Of a stretch of 45,499 nucleotides of DNA, positions 442-42,975 are shown piece after piece (position 1 is the stretch's first letter; every line of letters begins with the position of its first letter). Source of the DNA: Candidatus Humicultor tengchongensis (GTDB lineage: Bacteria > Sysuimicrobiota > Sysuimicrobiia > Sysuimicrobiales > Humicultoraceae); NCBI GenBank assembly GCA_031459715.1, contig JAVKIA010000019.1, forward strand, positions 1 through 45,499. The letters are read 5' to 3'. The position numbers and the translations under genes were made by a program. Below the pieces are notes generated by a model. That model worked only from the letters and a program-made list of their open reading frames with translations, was not told the origin of the DNA and did no database searches.

Positions 442-1463
442 TCCGCCGCCTCGGGCATGATGGCCACCTTCACCGGACCACCGCGGTCCAGCTCCTGGAA
501 AACGCCGACGATCTCGTCCAGGGGGCGCACGGCGCTGATGATGGGCCGGACGTCGATGCGCCTCCCGGCGAGCCAGTGGTAGGCCTCGGTGACGTCGGCA
601 GGCGTGTAGTGAAACGCGCTCACCAGGTCCACCTCGCCGTAGTGCAACAGCGCGGCGTCGAAGGTGACCCGGCTGCCGCCGGCCAGCCCGCCGAAGAGCA
701 GGACCTTCCCGCCGGGGCGCACCCATTCCGGCGCCTGCTCCCAGATGTGGTCGGTCCCGGTGGACTCCACCACCACGTCAGGGCGCGCCCCCAGAGCGTC
801 CTCCACCTGCAGGGGAATCTCCCCCTGCTCGATCTCCACCGGTGCCCCGCCAAGCTCCGCCGCCAGCCGCAGCCGCTCCGGGCGCCGTCCCACCGCGGCG
901 ATGCGGTGCCCCAGGACCCGGCCGGTCAGCACCTGCAGCAGGCCGATGGCCCCCAGGCCCACCACCGCCACGGTGGATGGGACGGACAGCCCCAGCCGCC
1001 GCCACCCGTGGAGGACGCAGGCCAGAGGCTCCAGGAAGGCCGCCTCGATGTAAGAGAGGTCCGCCGGCTTGGGCAACAGGTGGCGCGCCACCACCGCAGG
1101 GGAAATCAGCAGGTAGTCGGCGTAGGCGCCCAGGACGATGTCCCGGAACAGGCGCTCACAGTGGTTCTCCGCCCCGGCACGGCAGGCGCGGCAGGTGCCG
1201 CAGGGCGCCGTGGGCACCAGCATGACCGCATCGCCGGGGGCGACCCCATCCACACCGGAGCCCACGGCCACCACATCGCCGGCGCACTCGTGCCCGAAGG
1301 GGCCCGCCGGCAGGCGGGGATGCCCGCGACGGTACGTCTTCAGGTCGGTGCCGCAGGTGAGCGCCGCGCGCACGCGCAGCAATACCTCGCCCGGACCAGG
1401 ACGCGGCACCGGCCGCTCCTCAATGGTGATCACGCGCGGGGATTTCAGGACCGCCTGGCGCAA
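432..1463 (-). CDS. Zn-dependent alcohol / threonine / sorbitol dehydrogenase-like oxidoreductase (MDR family)
   Basis: 343-aa ORF. It carries GHECAGDVVAVG, the structural-Zn motif CGTCRACRAGAENHC and a Rossmann VVGLGAIG. Composition is coding-like with high GC3. Confidence 0.85.
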   Translation of the reverse strand: MRQAVLKSPRVITIEERPVPRPGPGEVLLRVRAALTCGTDLKTYRRGHPRLPAGPFGHECAGDVVAVGSGVDGVAPGDAVMLVPTAPCGTCRACRAGAENHCERLFRDIVLGAYADYLLISPAVVARHLLPKPADLSYIEAAFLEPLACVLHGWRRLGLSVPSTVAVVGLGAIGLLQVLTGRVLGHRIAAVGRRPERLRLAAELGGAPVEIEQGEIPLQVEDALGARPDVVVESTGTDHIWEQAPEWVRPGGKVLLFGGLAGGSRVTFDAALLHYGEVDLVSAFHYTPADVTEAYHWLAGRRIDVRPIISAVRPLDEIVGVFQELDRGGPVKVAIMPEAAEWC

Positions 1464-2685: not shown

Positions 2686-3540
2686 TCAAGGAACGCCGGT
2701 CTCCCGCTGCACCAGTTCGCGGTAAGCCTGTCGCAGCCTGGCGGTCACCTCTCCGGGAGCGCGGCGCCATTCCTGGTCGATCTGCCCCACCGGGAGGACC
2801 TGGATTCCGGTGCTGGTTATGAAGGCCTCCGCGGCCGCCGGGAGGTCGCTCAGGCGCAGCGCTACCTCGCGACAGGGGATCTCCAGGGCGCGGCAGAGGT
2901 CCAGCACGGCGGCGCGGGTCACCCCCTGCAGAATCCAGGTGTCTGCGGGGTGGGTCCGCACCACCCCGTCGATCACCGCAAAGAAATTGGCCGCGGTGCA
3001 CTCGGTGATGGTTCCCTCCGGCCTGTACAGCAGCGCCTCCTCCGCTCCCGCCCGCGCCGCCTGCTCCCGCGCCAGCACGTTGGCCAGCAGCGCGGTGGTC
3101 TTGATGTCACAGCGCGCCCAGCGCAGGTCCGGGTGGGTGATGAGGCGTGCGCCCCGGGTGGCGAGTCCCTCATCCGGTGGCGGGGCCTCCCGCAGGGTCA
3201 TGATCAGCGTGGGCCGCGCCCCCCGGGGGAAGGCGTGCTGCCTCGCAGCGGTCCCCCGGGTGACCTGGATGTAGAGGACGCCCTGGGTCAGGCCGGAGGT
3301 GGCCAGCAGCCGCTGCGCCTCTTCGGCGATCTCGGCCAGGGGCAGCGGGGGGGCCAGGTCGATGGCCTGCAGGCTGCGGGCCAGCCGCTCCAGGTGGGGT
3401 CCGAGGCGGAAGTACCTGCCGCGCTCGAAGTGGACGACCTCGTAGACGCTGTCCCCGAACTGCAGCCCGCGGTCCTCCACCGAGACGCGGGCCTCCTCGA
3501 TGCTGCTGATGGCACCGTTGACGTAGGCGAGCCCTGACAC
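2686..3540 (-). CDS. Class IV (fold-type IV) PLP aminotransferase of the D-amino-acid / branched-chain aminotransferase family
   Basis: 284-aa ORF reading EDRGLQFGDSVYEVVHFERGRYFRLGPHLERLARS. GTG start with an AAGGAG site 8 nt upstream. The RGxQFGDxVYEV motif and the length look more Dat-like than IlvE-like, but I cannot settle specificity by eye. Confidence 0.8.
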   Translation of the reverse strand: MSGLAYVNGAISSIEEARVSVEDRGLQFGDSVYEVVHFERGRYFRLGPHLERLARSLQAIDLAPPLPLAEIAEEAQRLLATSGLTQGVLYIQVTRGTAARQHAFPRGARPTLIMTLREAPPPDEGLATRGARLITHPDLRWARCDIKTTALLANVLAREQAARAGAEEALLYRPEGTITECTAANFFAVIDGVVRTHPADTWILQGVTRAAVLDLCRALEIPCREVALRLSDLPAAAEAFITSTGIQVLPVGQIDQEWRRAPGEVTARLRQAYRELVQRETGVP

Positions 3541-30498: not shown

Positions 30499-30528
30499 AC
30501 GCTAGCAGAGCGCGGAGCTGTTTGTCAA
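30499..30528 (-). promoter_or_regulatory. Putative promoter of the ilv-leu operon leader
   Basis: Minus strand reads TTGACA-N18-TAGCGT. The -35 hexamer overlaps the gltB stop codon (30525..30527). Confidence 0.45.
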
Positions 30529-33500
30529 GCCCTGAATCCCGAAAGTTCGGAATCTGGCGAACCGGCCGCCTCCGCAGCATCCTGTCCGAGGAGGCCGCGG
30601 GGGAGGACCTTTCGGAGGCGACCGGCTGAAAAAGGCCAGGCCTGCAGCAGCTCTGCCGCCCGCCGGCTCCCGGTGTGCGCCAGATGCTCGGCGAGGAGGT
30701 CGCGCAGCTCGTGCAGATCTTTCGCTTCGACCTGCACCACCGACACCGTCTCCTGGTTGCACCGGCCGGCGAACAGGCCGTCCTCGTCCAGGACGTAGGC
30801 CCGGCCCCCGGTCATCCCCGCACCGAAGTTGTAGCCGGCGCGGCCCAGCACCACCACTACCCCTCCGGTCATGTACTCGCACCCGTGGTCGCCCACCCCT
30901 TCCACTACGGCCACCGCGCCGCTGTTGCGCACGGCGAAGCGCTCGCCGGCGCGCCCCGCGGCGAAGAACCGGCCGCCGGTGGCGCCGTAGAGGACCGTGT
31001 TGCCCGCGATCACGTTCTCGTGGGAGGCGCCGGTGAAACCACGCGGCGGGCGGATGGCGATCGTTCCCCCGCTCATCCCCTTCCCCGCATAGTCGTTGAC
31101 CTCGCCCTCCAGCTCCAGGACCATCCCCGGGACGCAGAACGCGCCGAAGCTCTGACCCGCGCTCCCGGTAAACCGGAGCACGACGCGTCCCTCCCCCAGT
31201 CCTCCCTCCCCGTACCGCCTGGCGATGGCTCCGGCCAGGCGTCCGCCCACCGTCCGGTCCATGTTGCTGATGGAGTAGGTCAGGTGCACTGGGATGCCGC
31301 GCTCCAGGGCGGGCCAGGCGTCCATCCAGACGCGGTCGTCCAGGGTGGGGCCCTCGGGCCGCTTGTTGCGCGCCTGCATGCAGCGCCGCGCCGCCTCCGG
31401 CACCCCGGCGGACCCGGCCAGGAGCGCGGAAAGGCCGATACGGCGTCCCAGGACGGACTCGTCCACCGGGGATAGCAGCTCGCTGCGCCCGATGACCTCC
31501 TCCAGGGTGCGGGCGCCCAGCGCCGCCAGGTGACGCCGCACCTCCTCGGCCACCGCAAGCAGGTATGCCTCCACCCGCTCGGGCCGTCCGCTGAACCGGC
31601 CTCGCAGGTCCTCCCGCTGCGTGGCGATGCCGGTGGGGCAGGTGTTGAGGTGGCAGGCGCGGGCCATCACGCAGCCCAGGGCGACCAGCGCCGCGGTGCC
31701 GAAGCCGAACTCGTCTGCGCCCAGCAGGGCAGCCACGACCACGTCCCGCCCCGTTTTCAGCCCCCCGTCCACGCGCAGGCGGACCCGCCCGCGCAGCCCG
31801 CTGGCCACCAGCACCTGCTGGGTCTCCGCCAACCCCAGCTCCCAGGGCAGGCCCACGTGCTTGATGGACTCCAGGGGCGAGGCCCCCGTGCCGCCGTCGT
31901 GTCCGCTGATCTGGATGGTGTCGGCAAAGGCCTTGGCCACCCCCGCGGCGATGGTGCCCACACCGGCTTCCGCCACCAGCTTCACAGCCACGCGGGCCAG
32001 AGGATGGACTCGCTTGAGGTCGTAGATGAGCTGGGCCAGGTCCTCGATGCTGTAGATGTCGTGGTGGGGCGGCGGGGAGATCAGCGTGATCCCCGGCTGC
32101 GCGCGGCGGATGGCGGCGATCTCGGCGCTGACCTTGTGGCCGGGGAGCTGGCCTCCCTCGCCCGGCTTGCTCCCCTGCGCCATCTTGATCTCCAGCTCGT
32201 CGGCCGATACCAGGTAGGCCGCAGTCACCCCGAATCGTGCCGAGGCCACCTGCTTGATCCGGCTGTTGGCGTTGGTGCCGTCGGGCCGGGGGAGGTAGCG
32301 GGAGGGATCCTCGCCCCCCTCGCCGCTGTTGGAGCGGGCCCCCAGGCGGTTGGCGGCGATGGCCAGGGCCTCATGTGCCTCCCGGGAGAGCGCCCCGTGG
32401 GACATCGCTGAGAGGACGAAGCGGCGCACGATGGCGTCGGCAGGCTCCACCTCCTCCAGAGGGACGGGCTCCCGCCGGACAAAGGCCAGCAGGTCGCGCA
32501 GGGCGGTGGGGGGGCGGGAGGCGACCAGGTCGGCGAAGGCGGTGTAGGCCTGGCCGCTGCCCGACTGGGCGGCCTGGTGCAGCCGCTTCACTACATAAGG
32601 GTTGAAGGCGTGGTATTCACCGTCGCGGCGGAAGCGGACCAGCCCCGGGTCCGCCAGCTCTCCATCTCCGGCGAAGGCGCGTGCGTGGCGGGCGGCCGCC
32701 TGGGCGGCCAATTCGTCCAGGGAGACGCCGCCCAGGTGGGCGGGCGTGCCGGGGAAGTAGCGCTCCACCACCTGAGGGTCCAGCCCCACGACCTCGAAGA
32801 CCTGCCCGCCCTGGTACCCGGCGAGGGTGCTGATTCCCATCTTGCTGGCCACCTTGAGCAACCCCTGCTCCAGAGCGCTGAGGTACTGCCGGACCGAGGG
32901 TCGGCGGCCGTTGGCGGAGGGCAGCGCGGCCACGGTCTCCAGGGCCAGGTAGGGGCAGACCGCCTCAACTCCGTAGCCCAGCAGGCAGGCTACCTGGTGG
33001 ACGGTACGCGCTTCACCGCTCTCGACCAGCAGACCCACCCGCATGCGCAGCCCCACCCGGATGAGGTGATGGTGAACGGCGCTGGCGGCCAGGAGCATGG
33101 GGATGGGGATGCGTTTTGGGTCGGCGGCGCGGTCGCTGAGGATGAGCAGACCTGCCCCTTCTGAAACTGCGGATTCCGCCTCGCCGGCCAGACGGACAAG
33201 CGCAGCCTCCAGCGAGTCGCGGTCCGCAGGCCACGTGGCGTCCAGAACCACCGCCGGCCAGGGAGCGTGGGCGCGCACCCAGCCAAGCTGGTCGGGGGTG
33301 AGCACGGGCGAGGGGAAGGCCAGCAGCGCGGCGTGTTCGGGGCCATCCTCCAGCCAGTTGCGCCGCGGGCCCACCCGGACGGCAAGCGACATCACCAGCC
33401 GCTCCCGCAGGGGGTCGATCGGCGGATTGGTCACCTGGGCGAACCGCTGGCGGAAGTAATCGTAGAGGAGCCGGGGCCGTTGAGACAGGGCAGCGGGCGG

Positions 33501-35000
33501 GGTGTCGTCACCCATGGAGAAGACGACCTCCTTGCCCTCGGTGGCCATCGGCAGGAGGAGGTAGGTCACCTCTTCAGCCGTATACCCGAACACCTGCTGG
33601 CGGCGGCGCAGCCTGGCCCCGGCTGCGCTGTCTTGGGGTGGCGCTCCTGCATCAGGAGCGAGCGCCGCCTGCTCCGGCCCCTTCGCCGGCACCGGGGGTT
33701 CCCAGTTCCCGCCCGGGACGCGGATGATCCGGCGCGTCCACTCCCGGTAGGACCTGGCCGCGGCCACCTGTGCCTTTATCTCCGCGTCCGCCAGCATCTG
33801 GCCGGTGACAGTGTCCACCGCCAGGACCTGGCCCGGCCCCAACCGCCCCTTGCGCACCACCTGATCTGCGGGAAACGGTAGGACCCCAGCCTCTGACGCC
33901 AGCACTACCAGCCCCTCTGCCGTCACGGCGTAGCGGGCGGGTCGCAGGCCGTTACGGTCGAGGGCCGCGGCCACGATGCGCCCGTCGGAGCAGGCCAGCG
34001 CCGCGGGTCCGTCCCACGGCTCGGTCAGGCAGGCGTGGTACTCGTAGAAGGCGCGCACCGCATCGGGCAGGTCCGGGAGCTCCTCCCACGCCTGCGGGAC
34101 CAGCATCAGGAGGGCATGGAGCAGAGAGCGGCCCGAGGCCACCAGCAGCTCCAGGACGCTGTCCAGGTGGGCGCTGTCGCTTCCGCCCTCCTGCAGCAGC
34201 GGGACCAGGTCCCTCCACCGGTCGGCCCAGAGGGACTCCCGCAGCATCGCTTCCCGCGCGCGGGTCCAGAGGAGGTTGCCCTGCAGGGTGTTGATCTCCC
34301 CGTTGTGCGCCAGGTAGCGAAAGGGCTGGGCCAGCCACCAGCTGGGGGAGGTGTTGGTGCTGTACCGCTGGTGGAAGACCGCCAGCCGGGTGACGTAGGC
34401 GGGGTCGGTCAGGTCGCCATAGAAGCGCCCGAGTTGGGGGGAGACGAAGAGGCCTTTGTAGACCACGGTCCGGTGCGAGAAAGAAGCGATGTAGGCTCCA
34501 AGACCGGATTCCCGCAGGCGTCGCTCTGCCGTCCTCCGGGCGAGGTAGAGGCTGCGGGTGAAGGCAGGGTCATCATCCCCCGCCCGCCGCACGACCACGA
34601 GCTGTCGGATCACCGGCTGCGTCACGCGGGCGAAGGCTCCAAGTGCGTCCGGGTCTACGGGAACGGGCCGCCAGCCCAGGACGCGCAACCCCTGAGAACA
34701 CGCGGCCTGCTCAATCAGCGCCGCAGCCTCGTCTGCGGCAGCAGATGGCAGGAACACCATGGCCAGGGCCAGGTCCTCATCGCCCACGTCCCCCAGCGGG
34801 AGGTCGCGGCGCAGCAGGTCATAGGGAAGCTGGGTGAGCACCCCCGCTCCGTCCCCCGACTTCCCGTCGGCGGAGACGGCCCCACGGTGGCTCATCCGGG
34901 AGACGGCGGAGAGCGCCGCGGCCAGCACAGCGTGGCTGGGGAAGCGGTGGGCAACGAACCCTACGCCGCAGGCGTCGTGTTCCGCGATCGGGCTGACCAC
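30525..35000 (-). CDS. gltB: Glutamate synthase large subunit (GltB / Fd-GOGAT-like single large chain)
   Basis: 1491 aa from GTG 35000 with a perfect AAGGGAGG 4 nt upstream. The N-terminus MVSPIAEHDA-CGVGFVA gives the Ntn-amidotransferase Cys1 after a short propeptide. FMN and C-terminal GXGXG domains are present. Track start 35108 lies inside the riboswitch platform and is rejected. Confidence 0.93.
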   Translation of the reverse strand: MVSPIAEHDACGVGFVAHRFPSHAVLAAALSAVSRMSHRGAVSADGKSGDGAGVLTQLPYDLLRRDLPLGDVGDEDLALAMVFLPSAAADEAAALIEQAACSQGLRVLGWRPVPVDPDALGAFARVTQPVIRQLVVVRRAGDDDPAFTRSLYLARRTAERRLRESGLGAYIASFSHRTVVYKGLFVSPQLGRFYGDLTDPAYVTRLAVFHQRYSTNTSPSWWLAQPFRYLAHNGEINTLQGNLLWTRAREAMLRESLWADRWRDLVPLLQEGGSDSAHLDSVLELLVASGRSLLHALLMLVPQAWEELPDLPDAVRAFYEYHACLTEPWDGPAALACSDGRIVAAALDRNGLRPARYAVTAEGLVVLASEAGVLPFPADQVVRKGRLGPGQVLAVDTVTGQMLADAEIKAQVAAARSYREWTRRIIRVPGGNWEPPVPAKGPEQAALAPDAGAPPQDSAAGARLRRRQQVFGYTAEEVTYLLLPMATEGKEVVFSMGDDTPPAALSQRPRLLYDYFRQRFAQVTNPPIDPLRERLVMSLAVRVGPRRNWLEDGPEHAALLAFPSPVLTPDQLGWVRAHAPWPAVVLDATWPADRDSLEAALVRLAGEAESAVSEGAGLLILSDRAADPKRIPIPMLLAASAVHHHLIRVGLRMRVGLLVESGEARTVHQVACLLGYGVEAVCPYLALETVAALPSANGRRPSVRQYLSALEQGLLKVASKMGISTLAGYQGGQVFEVVGLDPQVVERYFPGTPAHLGGVSLDELAAQAAARHARAFAGDGELADPGLVRFRRDGEYHAFNPYVVKRLHQAAQSGSGQAYTAFADLVASRPPTALRDLLAFVRREPVPLEEVEPADAIVRRFVLSAMSHGALSREAHEALAIAANRLGARSNSGEGGEDPSRYLPRPDGTNANSRIKQVASARFGVTAAYLVSADELEIKMAQGSKPGEGGQLPGHKVSAEIAAIRRAQPGITLISPPPHHDIYSIEDLAQLIYDLKRVHPLARVAVKLVAEAGVGTIAAGVAKAFADTIQISGHDGGTGASPLESIKHVGLPWELGLAETQQVLVASGLRGRVRLRVDGGLKTGRDVVVAALLGADEFGFGTAALVALGCVMARACHLNTCPTGIATQREDLRGRFSGRPERVEAYLLAVAEEVRRHLAALGARTLEEVIGRSELLSPVDESVLGRRIGLSALLAGSAGVPEAARRCMQARNKRPEGPTLDDRVWMDAWPALERGIPVHLTYSISNMDRTVGGRLAGAIARRYGEGGLGEGRVVLRFTGSAGQSFGAFCVPGMVLELEGEVNDYAGKGMSGGTIAIRPPRGFTGASHENVIAGNTVLYGATGGRFFAAGRAGERFAVRNSGAVAVVEGVGDHGCEYMTGGVVVVLGRAGYNFGAGMTGGRAYVLDEDGLFAGRCNQETVSVVQVEAKDLHELRDLLAEHLAHTGSRRAAELLQAWPFSAGRLRKVLPRGLLGQDAAEAAGSPDSELSGFRA

Positions 35001-35088
35001 TGGACCTCCCTTAGACTTCCTCAGGGCAAGCCGTCCGTCACAGGCGACTTTCAGGACAGCGCCCGCTCCAGGATCCCCTGCTATGCAC

Positions 35089-35300
35089 GAAGCCCGAGGG
35101 CGAGGCACCCACCGGACTGTGCACTCCGGCGAGTGCGAACCTCTCCCTCGGGCTTCTCTCCCGATGGTAGACCGGCCGACCCCACCCGATCCGCTCAGGA
35201 ACCAGACCGGGGAACTGTCGGTATTTCGCTGCCGGCCTGCGCCGCTTGAACCAGGCCTTCCCCTGGTGGAGGAAGCGGAACCCTAGGCGCCTCTCGCGCC
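35089..35300 (-). promoter_or_regulatory. Second ykkC-family (subtype-2-like) riboswitch with expression platform, upstream of gltB
   Basis: The minus-strand RNA reads GCGCCUAGGGUUCCGCUUCCUCCACCAGGGGAAGGCCUGGUUCAAGCGGCGCAGG...(insert of about 65 nt)...ACCAUCGGGAGAGAAGCCCGAGGGAGAG. GAAGCCCGAGGG (35156..35145) is perfectly complementary to CCCUCGGGCUUC (35100..35089). A TTGACA lies at 35350..35345, about 58 nt upstream of the aptamer. Confidence 0.7.
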
Positions 35301-35564: not shown

Positions 35565-35867
35565 ATGGGGACCGAGACCACCGGCGTCAGGCTTGCCCGG
35601 CTGGAAGGCGCCTACGAGCAGATTGACAGGCGCCTGGGCACCATCGAGGGGCGCCTGGCCGTGCTGGAAGGCAAGGTGGACGCCGGGTTCGCCCGACTCG
35701 ACGCCAAGATCGGCGGGAAGATCGACGCGCTCGCCTCCGAGCTGCGGGAGGCGATCGTGCGTACCAACGCCCGGATGGATGCCCTGGGCGCCCGTCTGAA
35801 CACCGCGATGTTTGGCATCGTGGCCGCCGTCCTGGTTCCCATCCTCCTGCGCCTTTTCTGGCCCTGA
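35565..35867 (+). CDS. Small coiled-coil protein with a C-terminal transmembrane helix (hypothetical; DUF1640/XhlA-like appearance)
   Basis: 100-aa ORF with strong GC3 bias and sensible composition. It shows heptad-like repeats (RLARLEGAYEQIDRRLGTIEGRLAVLEGKVD...) and the C-terminal segment MFGIVAAVLVPILLRLFW. The ORF ends 9 nt before the stop of the convergent hom gene. Confidence 0.55.
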   Translation: MGTETTGVRLARLEGAYEQIDRRLGTIEGRLAVLEGKVDAGFARLDAKIGGKIDALASELREAIVRTNARMDALGARLNTAMFGIVAAVLVPILLRLFWP

Positions 35868-37245: not shown

Positions 37246-37273
37246 TTGACAACCGCCGCGGAGGTGCTACTTT
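37246..37273 (+). promoter_or_regulatory. Putative promoter of the amt leader
   Basis: TTGACA-N16-TACTTT, followed by an unusually AT-rich stretch (TTTTTTGGGATAAATAGAG). Confidence 0.35.
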
Positions 37274-37302
37274 TTTGGGATAAATAGAGTGCAGTTGGCC
37301 TG

Positions 37303-37349
37303 AGGCCGCGACGCCTCTCAAGCGAAGGGGTCGCGGCCTTTCGCTTTTC
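37303..37349 (+). terminator. Intrinsic-terminator-like hairpin inside the amt 5' leader (candidate attenuator)
   Basis: AGGCCGCGAC-N17-GUCGCGGCCU (10-bp stem) followed by UUCGCUUUUCGG. It lies about 100 nt upstream of the amt ATG and downstream of the putative promoter. No plus-strand gene lies upstream for it to terminate. Confidence 0.5.
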
Positions 37350-37450
37350 GGTGTACCGGCGGATCAGCCACGTCCCGGCGGGCTCGGGGCAGAGAGAGGC
37401 AGCGTCCGCGGGGGCACGGGGAGCGGAGAGAGGCACAGGAGGGACGACAG

Positions 37451-38893
37451 ATGGCCTTGCCGGGAAAGCCAGAGCGCGCGGGACGTATGTGGCTGGCCGC
37501 AGCCCTCGGCCTGCTGGTCGCAGGCTCCGCCGCAGCACCCGCCCTGGCCGCCGATCCGTCCGGGAGCGCCACCCTGGCCCGTCAGCCCGAGGCCGCCGTC
37601 AACTTCACCTGGACGCTGGTGGCCGCCTTCCTGGTCTTCTTCATGCAGGCGGGGTTCGCCCTGCTGGGTGCAGGGCTGATCCGCTCCAAGAACACGGTCA
37701 ACTACCTGACCAAGAGCTTCATGGACTTCTGCATGGCCTCGCTCTCCTTCTGGGCCTTCGGCTTCGCCCTGATGTTCGGCGGCTCCAGGCTGGCCCCAGG
37801 CCTGGAGGCCGGAGGCACCCTGGCGGGCTTCTCCGGATTCTTCCTGGCCCGCGGGAGCTACGACGTCTCCGCTGCGATGCTGTGGCTGTTCCAGATGGTC
37901 TTCGCCGCCACGGCGGCGACCATCGTCGCCGGCGCGGTGGCCGAGCGCATGAAGATCACTGCTTACCTGGCCTACAGCTTCCTCATCGGCGCGCTTATCT
38001 ACCCCATCTACGGGCACTGGGTCTGGGGCGGGGGCTGGCTGGCAACCCTGCCCTGGGGCGCGGGGGCGCGGGACTTCGCTGGCTCCGGCGTCGTGCACGC
38101 CGTGGGCGGGCTGCTGGCCCTGGTCGGTGCGGCCATGACCGGTCCGCGCCTGGGGAAATTCAACCGTGACGGCACGGCCAATGCCATCCCCGGCCACAAC
38201 ATGGTCTACGCCGTGACCGGGACGTTTGTCCTTTTCTTCGGCTGGTTCGGCTTCAACGCCGGCAGCACCCTGGCGGCCACCGACCTGCGCACCGCGGTGA
38301 TTGCCACAAACACCTTCCTCGCCGGAACCGCCGGAGCCGTAACCGCCCTCTACTACGCCCTGGTCCGCAGCGGTCGGGCGGATGTGGTCATGGCCTGCAA
38401 CGGCGCGCTGGCCGGCCTGGTGGGGATCACCGCTCCCTGCGCCTACGTGGCGCCGTGGGCGGCGGTGGTGATCGGCGCCGTCGGCGCCCTGATCATGGTG
38501 GGTGTGAGCGCCTTCGTCGAGCGGGTCCTCAAGGTGGACGACCCGGTGGGTGCCATCGCCGTGCACGCGGGCGGGGGGCTGTGGGGCCTGCTCGCGGTGG
38601 GAATTTTTGCCGACGGCACCTACGGAGGCGTCCGCGGGCTGATTACCGGAGCCGGAGGTCAGATGTTGGCGCAACTGGTGAGCATCGGCGCGGTCCTGGC
38701 CTGGAGCCTGGGGACCGGGTTCCTGATGTTCTGGTTCCTCAAGGCGACCATGGGCCTTCGGGCCTCGCCGGAGGAGGAGCTGTCGGGGCTGGACGTCCCC
38801 GAGCACGGGATCGAGTGCTACCCGGAACTGCAACTGGTCCCGGTTATGGGCGCCAGTGAGCCCCCGGCGATGCGACGGGAGGTGGGAGCATGA
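37451..38893 (+). CDS. amt: Ammonium transporter (Amt/MEP family) with an N-terminal signal peptide
   Basis: 480 aa with AGGAGGG 7 nt upstream: ...FLVFFMQAGFALLGAGLIRSKN..., ...AVHAGGGLWGLLAVGIFADG... A signal-like segment MWLAAALGLLVAGSAAAPALAA is present. Confidence 0.93.
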   Translation: MALPGKPERAGRMWLAAALGLLVAGSAAAPALAADPSGSATLARQPEAAVNFTWTLVAAFLVFFMQAGFALLGAGLIRSKNTVNYLTKSFMDFCMASLSFWAFGFALMFGGSRLAPGLEAGGTLAGFSGFFLARGSYDVSAAMLWLFQMVFAATAATIVAGAVAERMKITAYLAYSFLIGALIYPIYGHWVWGGGWLATLPWGAGARDFAGSGVVHAVGGLLALVGAAMTGPRLGKFNRDGTANAIPGHNMVYAVTGTFVLFFGWFGFNAGSTLAATDLRTAVIATNTFLAGTAGAVTALYYALVRSGRADVVMACNGALAGLVGITAPCAYVAPWAAVVIGAVGALIMVGVSAFVERVLKVDDPVGAIAVHAGGGLWGLLAVGIFADGTYGGVRGLITGAGGQMLAQLVSIGAVLAWSLGTGFLMFWFLKATMGLRASPEEELSGLDVPEHGIECYPELQLVPVMGASEPPAMRREVGA

Positions 38894-40092
38894 TCTCCGA
38901 GGTGACAGCCGCTGTCCTCTTCTTCCTCCTGCTGGCCGCGGCCTGGCTGGTCCTGCCCACGCTCTTCGTACACCGGGAGCGGGTGGAGGGAGCGGCACGG
39001 CGGGAGCGACAGAGGCAGGTGGCGGCCGAACGCGTGCACCTGGCCGGCCCCCTGCCGGGAGGTCCGCCCAGGATGCGCTCCCGGGGGGCGCTTGCCGGCA
39101 GGCTGGTGCGCAACTCCCAGGACGGGACCTCTCCAAACGGTACGACTCCCCGCTACTTCTTCGTCGCCGACGGGGGAGCCCACGGCCCGGGTGAACTGCG
39201 CGTCCCCATCTACCACCAGGTCAACCCCCGACCGGACCTGCTGCGCAAGGAGATCTACGTGGCAGAGGTGGCGGGGATGCGGCTGGAGGCCGGCAACCTG
39301 CCGCTTCTGGCAGAGATGCTATCGGTGGAGCTCGCCCGGCTGCGCCGCGGCGGCGCGCTGCCGCGCTACTGGTTCACGCTGCCCGACGGCGGCAGCGTGC
39401 CGGTATTCGCCCGGGGGGAGGGGTTTGAGGCCCGCATACCCGGGGGCCCGCACCTGGTGGAGCAGACGGTGGGCCGGCTGCGTCGCCGCCTGGCGGAGTA
39501 CCTGGCGCCGTTCGGAGAGGCCGCCCGGGGCGGTGGGCCCGAGGTCCTGGTGCTTGGAGCCGACCTGCGCTGCGCCCGGCCGGTTGCGGCCTTCGCCGCT
39601 GGGGAACTCTGGCTGCCGGTCCTGCGTATGGACGGGGCGCTGGTGGTGGAGGAGGCGGTGTATGAGCGCCAGCCCGCGGAGGAGGACGCCGCCGCGCTGC
39701 TCCCCCTGCGCCGCCGCGTCGCCGACCGCCTGGTGGCCCGGGGTCGTGTGCGCTCCCCCGCCGAAGTTCGGATCGAAGAGGTGGAACGGCACGCAGCACA
39801 GCGGCTGCGCCTGCTCCTGGGCCCGCCGGTGGGCCACCTGCCCTGCTTCGGCGCCGAGGGCGGGACGCTGGAGCAGGTTCTGCTCCCGGTCTTCCGCTTC
39901 CAGGGCGAGGTGCTCTGCCCCGGCCGGGCGGACTTCTCCGTCCTCTACGTCGGTCGGGACGAGGAGGAGTTACGCGCTCAGGTGGACGGCTCCTCATGGC
40001 GGGACGGCCTGGGCGCGGCCGCAGACCTTCTCCCGCCCGCCGCAGCAGGGCAGGCCAGGGACAAGACCAGCGCGCTGGGGAGGGTGATCTGA
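38890..40092 (+). CDS. Hypothetical membrane-anchored protein with an internally repeated Arg-rich soluble region (no family recognised)
   Basis: 400-aa ORF with coding-like composition and GC3 bias. Its ATG overlaps the amt stop (ATGA). It has an N-terminal TM helix (AAVLFFLLLAAAWLVLPTLFV) and repeated segments PRYFFVADGG... and PRYWFTLPDGG... The alternative-frame ORF 39092..40087 is Cys/Trp/Arg-rich and rejected. Confidence 0.75.
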   Translation: MISEVTAAVLFFLLLAAAWLVLPTLFVHRERVEGAARRERQRQVAAERVHLAGPLPGGPPRMRSRGALAGRLVRNSQDGTSPNGTTPRYFFVADGGAHGPGELRVPIYHQVNPRPDLLRKEIYVAEVAGMRLEAGNLPLLAEMLSVELARLRRGGALPRYWFTLPDGGSVPVFARGEGFEARIPGGPHLVEQTVGRLRRRLAEYLAPFGEAARGGGPEVLVLGADLRCARPVAAFAAGELWLPVLRMDGALVVEEAVYERQPAEEDAAALLPLRRRVADRLVARGRVRSPAEVRIEEVERHAAQRLRLLLGPPVGHLPCFGAEGGTLEQVLLPVFRFQGEVLCPGRADFSVLYVGRDEEELRAQVDGSSWRDGLGAAADLLPPAAAGQARDKTSALGRVI

Positions 40093-40095
40093 GCC

Positions 40096-41496
40096 ATGGC
40101 AGTGGGATGGATCGTGGCTGCGGGCGTGGTGCTGCTGGGCGCCGCCTTCGCCGTCTGGGCGCTGCGGTACACGAAGGTCGGCCCCAACGAGGTGCTGATC
40201 ATCTCCGGCCGGCGGCGCACGGTGGCGGACCCCAGGGGAGGGAAGCGCACTGTGGGCTACCGCCTGGTGCACGGCGGGGGCACCTTCGTCTGGCCAATCA
40301 AAGAGAAGGTGCAGCGCATGTCCCTGGAGCTGATGACCCTGGAGGTGCGCACCCCCGAGGTATACACGGCCATGGCCGTCCCCGTCACCGTGGACGGGGT
40401 GGCGCAGATCAAGGTGAAGGGCGACGACGCCTCCATCGCCCTGGCCGCGGAACAGTTCCTCTCCCGGTCGCGGGAGGAGGTGATGCGCACCCTGCTGCAG
40501 ACCCTGGAAGGGCACATGCGCGCCATCCTGGGGACCATGGTGGTAGAGGAGATCTACCGCGGGCGGCAGGAGCTGGCCCGCCGCGTGCGCGAGGCCGCCG
40601 CGGAAGACCTGGGGAAGATGGGGATGGAGATCATCTCCCTGACCATCCGCAACGTCACCGACAGTCAGGGCTACCTGGAGGCGCTGGCCCGCCCCCGCAT
40701 CGCCCAGGTGAAGCGCGACGCGGTGAAGGGCGAGGCGGAGGCGGAGTGGGAGGCGCAGCAGGCCCGCTTTGCCGCCGACACCCGCATCGAGGCGGCGCGG
40801 CGGGACATGGAGATCAGCAAGGCAGGCTTCGAGGCGGAGGTGAAGCAGAAGCGGGCCGAGGCCGACCTGAGCTACGACCTGCAGCGGTTCAAGATGGCCC
40901 AGCGGGTGAAGGCGGAGGAAGTGCAGGTGGGCATTGTGGAGAAGCAGAAGGCCGTGGAGCTGCAGGCGCAGGAGATCCTCCGCCGGGAGAAAGAGCTGGT
41001 GGCCACCGTGCTCAAGCCCGCCGAGGTCGAGCGGCAGAAGGTGGAACTTCTGGCGGAGGCCGAGCACTACCGCCTCAAGGCGGAGGGGCAGGGGCGGGCC
41101 GAGGAGATCCGCGCCCGGGGGACGGCCGAGGCCGCGGTGATCAAGGAGAAGGGCCTGGCGGAGGCCGAGGCCATGCTGCGTAAGGCCGACTCCTGGGGGC
41201 GGTACAACGAGGCGGCCATCAGCGAGCTATTCATCAACGTCCTGCCCCAGCTGGCCCGCGCGGTGAGCGAGCCGCTGGCCAGGACCGAGAAGATCGTGGT
41301 GGTGGGCAGCGACGGGAAGGGCACCGGTGCCTCCCGGATCACCGGCGACGTGGCCCAGGTGGTGGCGCAGCTACCGGCCGTGATCGAGGCGCTGACCGGG
41401 ATCAAGCTGCACAAGCTCCTGGAGCGGCTCCCCGCCCTGGCGGCGGCCGGCCGCAGCGAGCCCGGGGACCGCGAGGCGCCTGCCGGGGAGGTGTAG
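40096..41496 (+). CDS. Flotillin / SPFH (band-7) domain protein, FloT/YuaG-like
   Basis: 466 aa. It has an N-terminal membrane hairpin (WIVAAGVVLLGAAFAVWAL), a PHB domain, then EA-rich coiled-coil flotillin repeats (KGEAEAEWEAQQARF..., EKGLAEAEAMLRKA). The start lies 3 nt after the previous stop, with GGGGAGGG upstream. Confidence 0.9.
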   Translation: MAVGWIVAAGVVLLGAAFAVWALRYTKVGPNEVLIISGRRRTVADPRGGKRTVGYRLVHGGGTFVWPIKEKVQRMSLELMTLEVRTPEVYTAMAVPVTVDGVAQIKVKGDDASIALAAEQFLSRSREEVMRTLLQTLEGHMRAILGTMVVEEIYRGRQELARRVREAAAEDLGKMGMEIISLTIRNVTDSQGYLEALARPRIAQVKRDAVKGEAEAEWEAQQARFAADTRIEAARRDMEISKAGFEAEVKQKRAEADLSYDLQRFKMAQRVKAEEVQVGIVEKQKAVELQAQEILRREKELVATVLKPAEVERQKVELLAEAEHYRLKAEGQGRAEEIRARGTAEAAVIKEKGLAEAEAMLRKADSWGRYNEAAISELFINVLPQLARAVSEPLARTEKIVVVGSDGKGTGASRITGDVAQVVAQLPAVIEALTGIKLHKLLERLPALAAAGRSEPGDREAPAGEV

Positions 41497-41499
41497 GGA

Positions 41500-42975
41500 A
41501 TGGCCAAGGCCAGTTTGCGTCCTGCGACGCTCAAACCGACCACAGCCGCGGAGGTGCTGGAGCTGTGCCAGGGGACCGTGGAGGTGCGGGAGCGGCAGCG
41601 GGTGGAGGTGGTCGACCTGCGCTTCGTGGACCTGCTGGGCGCCTGGCAGCACTTCTCCATCCCGGCGGGTGAGCTGAGCGAGGAGCTGTTTGCGGAAGGC
41701 ATCGGGTTCGACGGGTCCAGCATCCGCGGCTTCCAGCACATCCACGAGAGCGACATGCTCCTCCTCCCCGACCCGACCACCGCGCGCATCGACCCCCTGG
41801 GCGATCCTCCCACCCTGGCCATCATCTGCAACGTGGTCGACCCCATCACCCGAGAACCCTACACCCGGGACGCCCGGTTCGTGGCCCAGAAGGCGGAGCG
41901 CTACCTGCGGGCCTCAGGTATCGCCGAAGTCAGCTACTGGGGGCCGGAGGTGGAGTTCTTCGTCTTCGACGACGTGCGCTTCGACCAGAACCAGCACTCC
42001 GGCTACTACTACCTGGATTCCATGGAGGGCGCCTGGAACACCGGGCGGGAGGAGAAGCCCAACCTGGGCTACAAGCCGCGGTACAAGGAGGGCTACTTTC
42101 CCGTCCCGCCCACCGACTCCCTGCAGCCCCTGCGCTCGCGCATGGTCCGCCGCCTGCTGGAGGCCGGCCTGGAGGTGGAGGCGCACCACCACGAGGTGGG
42201 CAGCGGCGGGCAGTGCGAGATCGACCTGCGCTTTACCTCCCTCACCGAGATGGGCGACCGCGTCCTCTGGTACAAGTACGTCGTGCGCAACGTGGCCCGG
42301 GCCGCGGGCAAGGTCGTCACCTTCATGCCCAAGCCGCTGTTTGGAGACAACGGCTCGGGGATGCACACCCACCAGAGCCTGTGGGCGGCGGGCGCCAACC
42401 TGTTCTTCGACCCCCGCGGCTACGCCCAGCTCAGCGAGCTGGCCATGTACTACATCGGGGGGCTGATCAGGCATACCCCGGCCCTGCTGGCCTTCTGCGC
42501 CCCCACCACCAACTCGTACCGCCGCCTGGTACCCGGCTACGAGGCGCCGGTGAACCTGGCCTACGCCCAGCGCAACCGCAGCGCCTGCATCCGCATCCCC
42601 GTCTACTCCGCCAGCCCGGGGGCCAAGCGCATCGAGTACCGCTGCCCCGACCCCACCTGCAACCCCTACCTGGCCTTTGCCGCCATGCTCATGGCCGGCC
42701 TGGACGGCATCGAGCAGCGGATAGACCCCGGGGCGCCCATGGACGTGGACCTGTACGAACTGGCCAGCGGCAACGGCGGCGCGGTCCCGCAGGTGCCTGC
42801 CTCACTCCCCGAGGTGCTGGATGCCCTGGAGGCCGACCACGACTTCCTCCTGCGCGGCGAGGTCTTCACCGAAGACCTCATCCACGCCTGGATCGCCTAC
42901 AAGCGCCACAAGGAGGTGGACGCGGTGCGGCTGCGGCCCCACCCGTGGGAGTTCGCCCTGTACTTTGACGCCTGA
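41500..42975 (+). CDS. glnA: Glutamine synthetase type I
   Basis: 491 aa: ...VDLRFVDLLGAWQHFSIP...FDGSSIRGF...; ...MPKPLFGDNGSGMHTHQSLW...; ...NSYRRLVPGYEAP... The start lies 3 nt after the flotillin stop, with GGGGAGG upstream. Confidence 0.95.
   Translation: MAKASLRPATLKPTTAAEVLELCQGTVEVRERQRVEVVDLRFVDLLGAWQHFSIPAGELSEELFAEGIGFDGSSIRGFQHIHESDMLLLPDPTTARIDPLGDPPTLAIICNVVDPITREPYTRDARFVAQKAERYLRASGIAEVSYWGPEVEFFVFDDVRFDQNQHSGYYYLDSMEGAWNTGREEKPNLGYKPRYKEGYFPVPPTDSLQPLRSRMVRRLLEAGLEVEAHHHEVGSGGQCEIDLRFTSLTEMGDRVLWYKYVVRNVARAAGKVVTFMPKPLFGDNGSGMHTHQSLWAAGANLFFDPRGYAQLSELAMYYIGGLIRHTPALLAFCAPTTNSYRRLVPGYEAPVNLAYAQRNRSACIRIPVYSASPGAKRIEYRCPDPTCNPYLAFAAMLMAGLDGIEQRIDPGAPMDVDLYELASGNGGAVPQVPASLPEVLDALEADHDFLLRGEVFTEDLIHAWIAYKRHKEVDAVRLRPHPWEFALYFDA

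Follow-up and report, generated by a model that had tools for sequence, protein, structure and literature searches.

Bacterial flotillins are usually accompanied in their operons by NfeD proteins, and in SPFH2 operons NfeD2 is encoded directly upstream of the flotillin (PMC2636767). SPFH proteins form domes that enclose membrane clients, as HflK/C does with FtsH and stomatin with AQP1 or the trimeric urea transporter UT-B, and in overhydrated stomatocytosis RhAG mutations lead to a progressive loss of stomatin (PMC12407830). In Arabidopsis, AMT1;3 shows partial co-localisation with Flot1, which is also required in part for the internalisation of AMT1;3 in response to ammonium (PMC8644385). We report here on a 45,499-nucleotide (nt) contig (JAVKIA010000019.1, Candidatus Humicultor tengchongensis; the whole stretch analysed, 45.5 kb, is called the window below), in which the flotillin-operon position usual for NfeD is taken by an uncharacterised protein, designated X, encoded between an ammonium transporter gene (amt) and a flotillin gene. 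In the source annotation, that of an Armatimonadota metagenome-assembled genome (MAG), its name is 'hypothetical protein QN152_08540'.

X is linked to amt, to flotillin and to the glutamine synthetase (GS) gene glnA across related loci, it is fused to Amt in one lineage, and it consists of four tandem modules. We hold a functional linkage of X to Amt as such to be highly probable. Full-text searches of a literature library returned no report of a bacterial amt-flotillin operon or of the X protein family. The novelty lies in the family and fold of X and in the operon association, and not in a demonstrated mechanism.

Linkage of protein X to amt, flotillin and glnA

The X gene (38890..40092, forward strand) encodes 400 amino acids (aa), just as an earlier note on this DNA had placed it, and its assignment is supported by the open reading frame (ORF) itself, by the ATGA overlap with the preceding gene, by conserved relatives and by the AlphaFold model. 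The ATG of X and the stop codon of amt overlap (ATGA at 38890-38893), and the Shine-Dalgarno-like stretch GGGAGGTGGGAG precedes the ATG; the stop codon of X, TGA, occupies positions 40090-40092 and is followed, after a gap of 3 nt, by the flotillin ATG at 40096. A gap of the same length separates the flotillin stop from the start of glnA. The earlier note had proposed that X is translationally coupled between amt and flotillin and had singled it out as the key unknown of the operon; both junctions agree with the former claim, and X retains the latter status. The first gene of the operon, amt (37451..38893, forward strand, 480 aa), matches PF00909 at 1.5e-121 and TIGR00836 with 421 bits, over the cut-off. 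The SPFH2/FloT-like flotillin (40096..41496, forward strand, 466 aa) matches Band_7 at 1.2e-28, Flot at 3.1e-6 and the NCBIfam FloT model at 2e-112, the last being under the equivalog cut-off. The last gene of the cluster, glnA (41500..42975, forward strand, 491 aa), codes for a type I GS, matched by TIGR00653 with 640 bits (1.9e-192, over the cut-off) and by Gln-synt_C at 2.7e-129.

The neighbourhood of X was compared in 42 places, that is, in the window and in 41 related loci (L numbers below) gathered by exact-protein look-ups and pattern scans, on which Amt, PII, X, flotillin and GlnA were mapped by HMMER. The loci come from Armatimonadota, from Actinomycetota/Thermoleophilia and from unclassified metagenomes, and a metagenome scan with a divergent subfamily yielded two of them. 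Upstream of X, amt and/or glnK was found in all 37 informative places: amt lies directly before X or is fused to it in 18, the pair amt-glnK precedes it in 17, glnK at a contig edge does so in one, and a permease gene stands between amt and X in another. Downstream, flotillin is the next gene in 33 of the 38 informative places; glnA follows directly in two (L034, L035) and something else in three, which represent two distinct cases (L030/L031 and L033). The order amt-X-flotillin-glnA occurs in Armatimonadota, including 'Ca. Thermofontivivens', and again in L036, which belongs to the most divergent subfamily (about 22-27% identity). Thermoleophilia/Solirubrobacterales and L040 show amt-glnK-X-flotillin-glnA, and L006 and L007 show amt-X-flotillin-glnK-glnA. 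The very divergent metagenomic subfamilies L036 and L040 carry the same four genes, and the cluster recurs in at least two phyla, in subfamilies that lie more than 70% sequence divergence apart.

The junctions recur as well. The ATGA overlap of amt and X is found in the window, L001, L002 and L036, and X and flotillin overlap or are separated by 3-14 nt in the window, L001, L002, L005, L006, L036, L040 and L041. PII genes stand beside X in 20 loci (the 17 with amt-glnK-X, L006/L007 and L033), and none was found within the 45.5 kb window. No NfeD gene is present in any X cluster for which domain calls were available.

In one lineage the linkage extends to a single polypeptide. In the protein P0037 (748 aa), a complete Amt domain (residues 14-416) and the normal C-terminal region of Amt are followed by a linker rich in Pro/Ala (about 45 residues) that leads into X, and the ORF runs through on its contig without an internal stop or an N. 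The same fusion junction occurs in P0029, which comes from a different sample and is 79.5% identical to P0037. Two diverged copies sharing one junction argue that the fusion is maintained and is not an accident of assembly. Fusions of X were found to Amt only, and none to flotillin. A third protein, P0086 (110 aa), in which about 27 PII-like N-terminal residues are followed by module 1, was not counted as a fusion, as it may be a chimera or a mis-assembly.

Some loci show further peculiarities. In L035, a short X of 172 aa (911..1429), corresponding to roughly two modules, precedes two copies of glnA, and flotillin is missing; in L030/L031, the gene after X codes for an unannotated protein of 299 aa, and a glgB-like gene comes next. 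Such variants without flotillin could reveal the role of X alone. In L021 and L028, both from Thermoleophilia MAGs, amt, X, flotillin and/or glnA are split into ORF pieces in different frames, which probably reflects assembly frameshift errors rather than pseudogenes. A glutamine-dependent NAD+ synthetase (CN_hydrolase plus NAD_synthase) is encoded near the cluster in L005 (4634..6406), L040 (12346..14055) and L033 (1575..2330); its recurrence in three unrelated subfamilies suggests a wider glutamine/ammonia neighbourhood.

A family of four-module proteins

X had been described as an orphan. This holds in the sense that it is uncharacterised, all source names encountered for its relatives being 'hypothetical protein', but not in the sense that it lacks relatives. 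An exhaustive HMMER profile search of 1.84 billion representatives returned 92 clusters (at 50% identity) at E <= 1e-3, so that the family spans at least 92 such clusters in at least two phyla; 58 of them score at <= 1e-10 and 10 at <= 1e-30. A word-indexed search finds only three relatives (80%, 80% and 50% identity), and its profile version added one. The false impression of an orphan arises from the few relatives that a word-indexed search finds, and the exhaustive search is needed. Identity to X falls to 20-30% among the relatives, and the ORF is kept together with the same neighbours down to about 22% identity, which marks X as a real gene under selection. Neither in Pfam-A nor in NCBIfam or PADLOC was a family found to which X belongs, the only Pfam match being YhdP (E 0.22, 9.8 bits against a cut-off of 46). 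None of 48 family members matched Pfam either, except for a C-terminal dCache/PDC add-on in one of them. Sequence-profile searches of the PDB with the X family were empty, and Foldseek comparison of the X model with the PDB gave no match at E <= 0.001 (best E 0.087, TM-scores 0.1-0.2). The claim that X contains no known domain therefore stands, and no characterised family has emerged for it. Among solved structures, the four-module fold has no relative, and the family merits a definition of its own. Two members carry additions: in P0023, a PDC/Cache-like sensor domain (MCP-like_PDC_1, 29.6 bits against a cut-off of 27) is added at the C-terminus of a full X, and P0089 combines X with a weak HHH_5 match.

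The earlier note had recognised about four tandem modules within X, and this repeat could be confirmed as a signal of the family, not of the single sequence. As X is compositionally biased, controls were run. In self-alignment of the single sequence, the best off-diagonal match, the PRYFF/PRYWF pair, scores 46 and is not significant (shuffles: mean 40, standard deviation 7; 21 of 100 reach 46). A profile of four sequences, built from close homologues, gives only a repeat match of 10-14 columns (P about 0.01-0.02). Upon deriving a 48-member alignment from the exhaustive search, self-comparison of its profile by hhalign aligned residues 87-297 with 158-385 at a shift of one module (189 columns, probability 98.2%, E 2.8e-14) and residues 137-219 with 295-383 at a shift of two (probability 90.5%, E 1.3e-6). 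For the soluble part, the off-diagonal score is 120.5 (E about 1e-16), whereas the reversed profile reaches 21.8 and 25 column shuffles give 14.6 +/- 2.6 (maximum 23.3). A block-shuffle control was dropped as an invalid null, since identical 7-column blocks re-align to themselves. The match between residues 87-108 and 158-179, on which the repeat had originally been based, is upheld by the profile as to its register and lacks significance in the single sequence. The register is marked by (L/I)PV(Y/F) strands at 105-108, 170-173, 242-245 and 332-335, each followed after about 25-35 residues by an amphipathic helix that closes the module. Module lengths are about 71, 65, 77 and 86 aa.

With the 48-member alignment, AlphaFold2 gave a model with a predicted local distance difference test (pLDDT) score of 86.8, a predicted TM-score (pTM) of 0.78 and 250 residues at pLDDT >= 90; with four sequences, the model was unusable (pLDDT 46.6). 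The model consists of a long N-terminal helix (residues 2-52) and four units of 3-5 strands plus a helix. The four module helices (H137-151, H194-208, H266-283, H358-372) agree with the amphipathic helices that the earlier note had placed after each repeat. With a significant internal repeat and equivalent secondary structure in each unit, X belongs to the class of tandem-repeat proteins.

The modules follow one another on the forward strand, and conservation within them was computed over 61 full-length members. Module 1 (39148..39360, residues 87-157) has strands 89-94, 102-111, 121-127 and 130-134 and helix 137-151. It is the most conserved part of X, and its motif KEIYxxE(I/V)AGxxLExGNL is the best conserved stretch of 20 residues. 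Within the module, Y123 is conserved at 85%, G129 at 98%, E133 at 87% and L140 at 87%. Module 2 (39361..39555, residues 158-222) has strands 158-163, 169-175, 178-182 and 188-191 and helix 194-208; P158 is conserved at 100%, P171 at 89% and G186 at 85%. In module 3 (39556..39786, residues 223-299), strands 233-237, 240-247 and 250-253 precede helix 266-283, and L226 (90%), W241 (79%) and P243 (100%) stand out. Module 4 (39787..40044, residues 300-385) begins with a helix (300-310), continues with strands 315-323, 326-337, 340-344 and 352-355 and ends with helix 358-372; its conserved residues include L317 (84%), P333 (74%) and L361 (87%).

Pro, Gly, Leu, Tyr and Trp make up most of the conserved positions in the family. 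Among polar residues, N75, K120, E121, E126, E133, N136 and D225 are conserved, and all of these except D225 and N75 lie in the module 1 motif. Neither a conserved Cys/His/Ser set nor conserved catalytic residues were found among the 61 members, in agreement with the earlier failure to recognise a catalytic motif, and no ligand-binding motif is recognisable in the conserved positions. This pattern fits a binding surface on a repeat scaffold rather than an enzyme.

The N-terminal part of X comprises a transmembrane (TM) helix (38902..38970, forward strand, residues 5-27; mean Kyte-Doolittle value of the 19-mer 2.62), followed by the charged Arg/Glu-rich segment RERVEGAARRERQRQ. Residues 28-86 (38971..39147, forward strand) form a charged juxtamembrane helix and a weakly conserved linker. 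The pLDDT falls below 50 at residues 53-60, residues 1-70 are weakly conserved, and the linker ends in a conserved LxRNP strand (70-76), in which N75 is kept at 74%. The strong hydrophobicity of residues 5-27 bears out the single TM helix that had been noted at about residues 6-27. The N-terminal flank, MISE, contains no Lys or Arg and the C-terminal flank has six in 15 residues; in all 12 TM-bearing members examined, the N flank is free of Lys/Arg and the C flank has 3-7. Hydrophobicity and charge bias are those of a single-pass signal anchor. By the positive-inside rule, positive charge on the C flank predicts an N-out/C-in orientation, and the repeat domain of the TM-anchored members is hence predicted to be cytoplasmic. 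The C-terminus of Amt is cytoplasmic, as in the topology of AmtB. The repeat domain of X would thus share the cytoplasmic side of the membrane with the Amt C-terminus, GlnK, the SPFH domain of flotillin and GS. The anchor is, however, not a property of the whole family: the TM helix, with a conserved LW.VLP.R signature, occurs in about 20 of 95 members, most others lacking a TM segment and being soluble. Thermoleophilia copies have no hydrophobic segment.

Candidate roles of protein X

We favour, with a probability of about one half, the reading that X partners Amt in the cytoplasm, close to the membrane, and in most lineages forms a bridge from Amt to a flotillin scaffold, with GS coming from the same transcript. 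As a non-enzymatic partner or adaptor of Amt, X would work on the cytoplasmic side of the membrane, which it would reach in three interchangeable ways, by an N-out/C-in anchor of its own, by fusion to the Amt C-terminus or as a free soluble protein. These three forms are what one would expect if X were a peripheral subunit of a membrane complex. X is co-translated with flotillin in most lineages. It would dock the Amt trimer, together with GlnK where present, to the flotillin scaffold, and ammonium entry would in this way be organised in a flotillin-delimited microdomain beside the GS of the same transcript.

Several points weigh against this reading. Beyond the linkage, we infer physical binding of X to Amt, its binding to flotillin and any effect on transport or assimilation from gene order and from the fusion. 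Operon membership could reflect co-regulation under nitrogen limitation instead of physical contact, a view that for Amt is weakened by the existence of the Amt::X fusion. X coexists with GlnK in Thermoleophilia, and it is not obvious how the soluble members would stay at the membrane. Five of the 38 downstream contexts (L030/L031, L033, L034 and L035) are devoid of flotillin, so that coupling to flotillin is not universal and X must be able to perform its core function in the absence of flotillin. The 42 places include near-duplicates (L005/L015, L006/L007, L020/L022, L030-L032 and L037-L039) and so are not all independent; 20 of them come from a single class, Thermoleophilia. The fold comparison covered the PDB, and a relative of X could exist among predicted structures.

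Some of the same evidence might also be read in terms of regulation. X could be a GlnK-like regulator or gate of Amt, placed at the cytoplasmic vestibule or the C-terminal region and maybe responsive to a metabolite, with flotillin being merely co-regulated. The link to Amt or Amt-PII is universal (37 of 37), as compared with 33 of 38 for flotillin; the fusion places X at the C-terminal end of Amt, adjacent to the regulatory region found there; Armatimonadota X occupies the usual glnK position, with no PII gene in the 45.5 kb window; and P0023 bears its PDC/Cache-like sensor domain. We consider this rather unlikely, however, since at the 17 amt-glnK-X loci, mostly of Thermoleophilia, X does not replace GlnK, it shows neither sequence nor fold similarity to PII, it contains no recognisable ligand-binding motif, and its tight coupling to flotillin, including 4-nt overlaps, would be left unexplained. 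That coupling would be accounted for if X were an accessory of flotillin, an analogue of NfeD/YuaF that nucleates, anchors or regulates the flotillin oligomer, with Amt as one client. X lies directly upstream of flotillin and is coupled to it, which is the position of NfeD2 in SPFH2 operons (PMC2636767); the X clusters with domain calls contain no NfeD, the X of the window combines an N-terminal anchor with a cytoplasmic domain as NfeD2 proteins do, and flotillin follows in 33 of the 38 informative places. Yet X does not have the NfeD fold, most members have no TM segment, some subfamilies have no adjacent flotillin, and the fusions are to Amt and never to flotillin, all of which makes such a role distinctly unlikely.

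Most loci have glnA in the cluster, and L034 and L035 have it immediately after X, so that the target of X might be GS or nitrogen signalling and not the transporter; X would then be a regulator, a chaperone, a sensor or a modifying enzyme. Other lineages possess small regulators that bind GS (IF7/IF17 of cyanobacteria, sP26 of Methanosarcina), and the PDC/Cache-like domain of P0023 would be in line with a sensor. A role of this kind is nevertheless very improbable: at L030/L031, L033 and L041, X and amt occur with no glnA in the available sequence, the fusion partner is Amt and not GS, conserved catalytic residues are absent, and a TM anchor is hard to square with a soluble dodecameric enzyme. 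As to whether X is a real protein at all, the window has about 70% G+C and many long spurious ORFs on both strands, and the repeat is not significant in the single sequence, so that a chance ORF or a decaying gene with a repeat due to compositional bias had to be considered. Conservation across phyla, with unchanged neighbours and down to about 22% identity, an AlphaFold pLDDT of 86.8 and a profile repeat score of 120 against at most 23 in reversed or shuffled controls refute this explanation.

To our knowledge, the specific clients of bacterial flotillins, much studied as these proteins are, and the way in which clients are recruited are little clear. In the amt-X-flotillin-glnA cluster, a client (Amt), a candidate adaptor (X) and an enzyme (GS) are brought together in one cross-phylum operon, which makes the role of a bacterial flotillin directly testable. 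For ammonium uptake, a system deemed well understood, X adds a component beside GlnK.

Further elements of the window and comparison with known systems

The leader of amt (37247..37352, forward strand) contains a TTGACA box, a long GC-rich hairpin (37303-37337) and a T-tract, its fold having z = -3.0, and was compared in four Armatimonadota loci. The TTGACA box is invariant across the four, and the hairpin is found in 4/4 sequences, that of L005 having a different stem sequence. No Rfam family matched the leader, which may represent a promoter plus an attenuator- or terminator-like element for the operon. In L005, a response-regulator/ANTAR gene and nadE lie directly upstream of amt, which hints at antitermination control.

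Upstream of the operon, gltB, the gene for the large subunit of glutamate synthase (30525..35108, reverse strand), bears in its 5' leader an RNA of the ykkC fold (35143..35297, reverse strand). This RNA matches the full Guanidine-I model of Rfam (RF00442) with 42.8 bits against a gathering score of 63 (E 1.3e-6 for the 311-nt region searched) and contains a 52-nt insertion in one stem. Riboswitches for guanosine tetraphosphate (ppGpp) of a ykkC subtype are reported to be associated with glutamate synthase genes (PMC6003355), and the RNA in the gltB leader for this reason probably belongs to subtype 2, as a ppGpp-like variant, and not to the guanidine sensors. Between gltB and hom, an ORF of 100 aa (35565..35867, forward strand) resembles a coiled coil in its N-terminal part and has a hydrophobic tail at its C-terminus, ending in MFGIVAAVLVPILLRLFWP. 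It gave weak matches only in Pfam, and the related contig L002 carries a gene of 100 aa at the matching relative position (2795..3097).

With respect to known systems, X resembles both GlnK and NfeD in operon logic and is a member of neither family, as the defining sequence and fold tests of both fail. GlnK, like X, is encoded directly after amt in nitrogen-limitation operons, is cytoplasmic and is expected to act on Amt trimers from their cytoplasmic side. A PII protein is a ferredoxin-like trimer of 112 aa that carries a T-loop, whereas X proteins have 320-400 aa and four repeats and do not match PF00543; besides this difference in length and architecture, both proteins are encoded in one operon in 17 loci. 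X is not an SPFH protein itself, having no match to PF01145, a family that its neighbour matches at 1.2e-28. NfeD2, YuaF and YqiJ resemble X in that they are encoded directly upstream of flotillin and coupled to it, lack known enzymatic activity and presumably have a role tied to the scaffold (PMC2636767), and NfeD2 has, like the X of the window, an N-terminal membrane anchor and a cytoplasmic soluble domain. Adjacency to an SPFH gene, seen for X in 33 of 38 places, is likewise a trait of NfeD. In contrast to NfeD, X does not match PF01957, consists of four alpha+beta repeats instead of an OB-fold and is soluble in most members. It is in addition linked as tightly to amt and fused to Amt, a property unreported for NfeD in the survey of that family (PMC2636767).

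The systems in which an SPFH dome surrounds a client (HflK/C, stomatin, flotillin-1/2) resemble the X cluster in that an SPFH scaffold is paired, genetically or physically, with a specific oligomeric membrane protein, and UT-B, of the stomatin system, is a trimeric channel for a nitrogen compound. The X cluster differs from those described (PMC12407830; PMC8644385) in comprising a third protein, the putative adaptor, and a co-encoded metabolic enzyme. Enclosure of Amt by flotillin is, in the present case, purely hypothetical. In a more far-reaching reading, X might be a dedicated adaptor placing Amt trimers, with GlnK, under a cytoplasmic flotillin dome with GS nearby, thus forming a nanocompartment for ammonium capture that limits back-leak of NH3 and futile cycling; we regard this extension as doubtful. 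Should it be true, the amt-X-flotillin-glnA operon would be a bacterial and genetically explicit form of an ancient partnership between SPFH and Amt/Rh proteins, which surfaces in plants as AMT1;3-Flot1 and in human red cells as RhAG-stomatin. X might offer a mechanistic entry both to the stomatin loss of RhAG-linked stomatocytosis and to the flotillin-dependent behaviour of AMT1;3.

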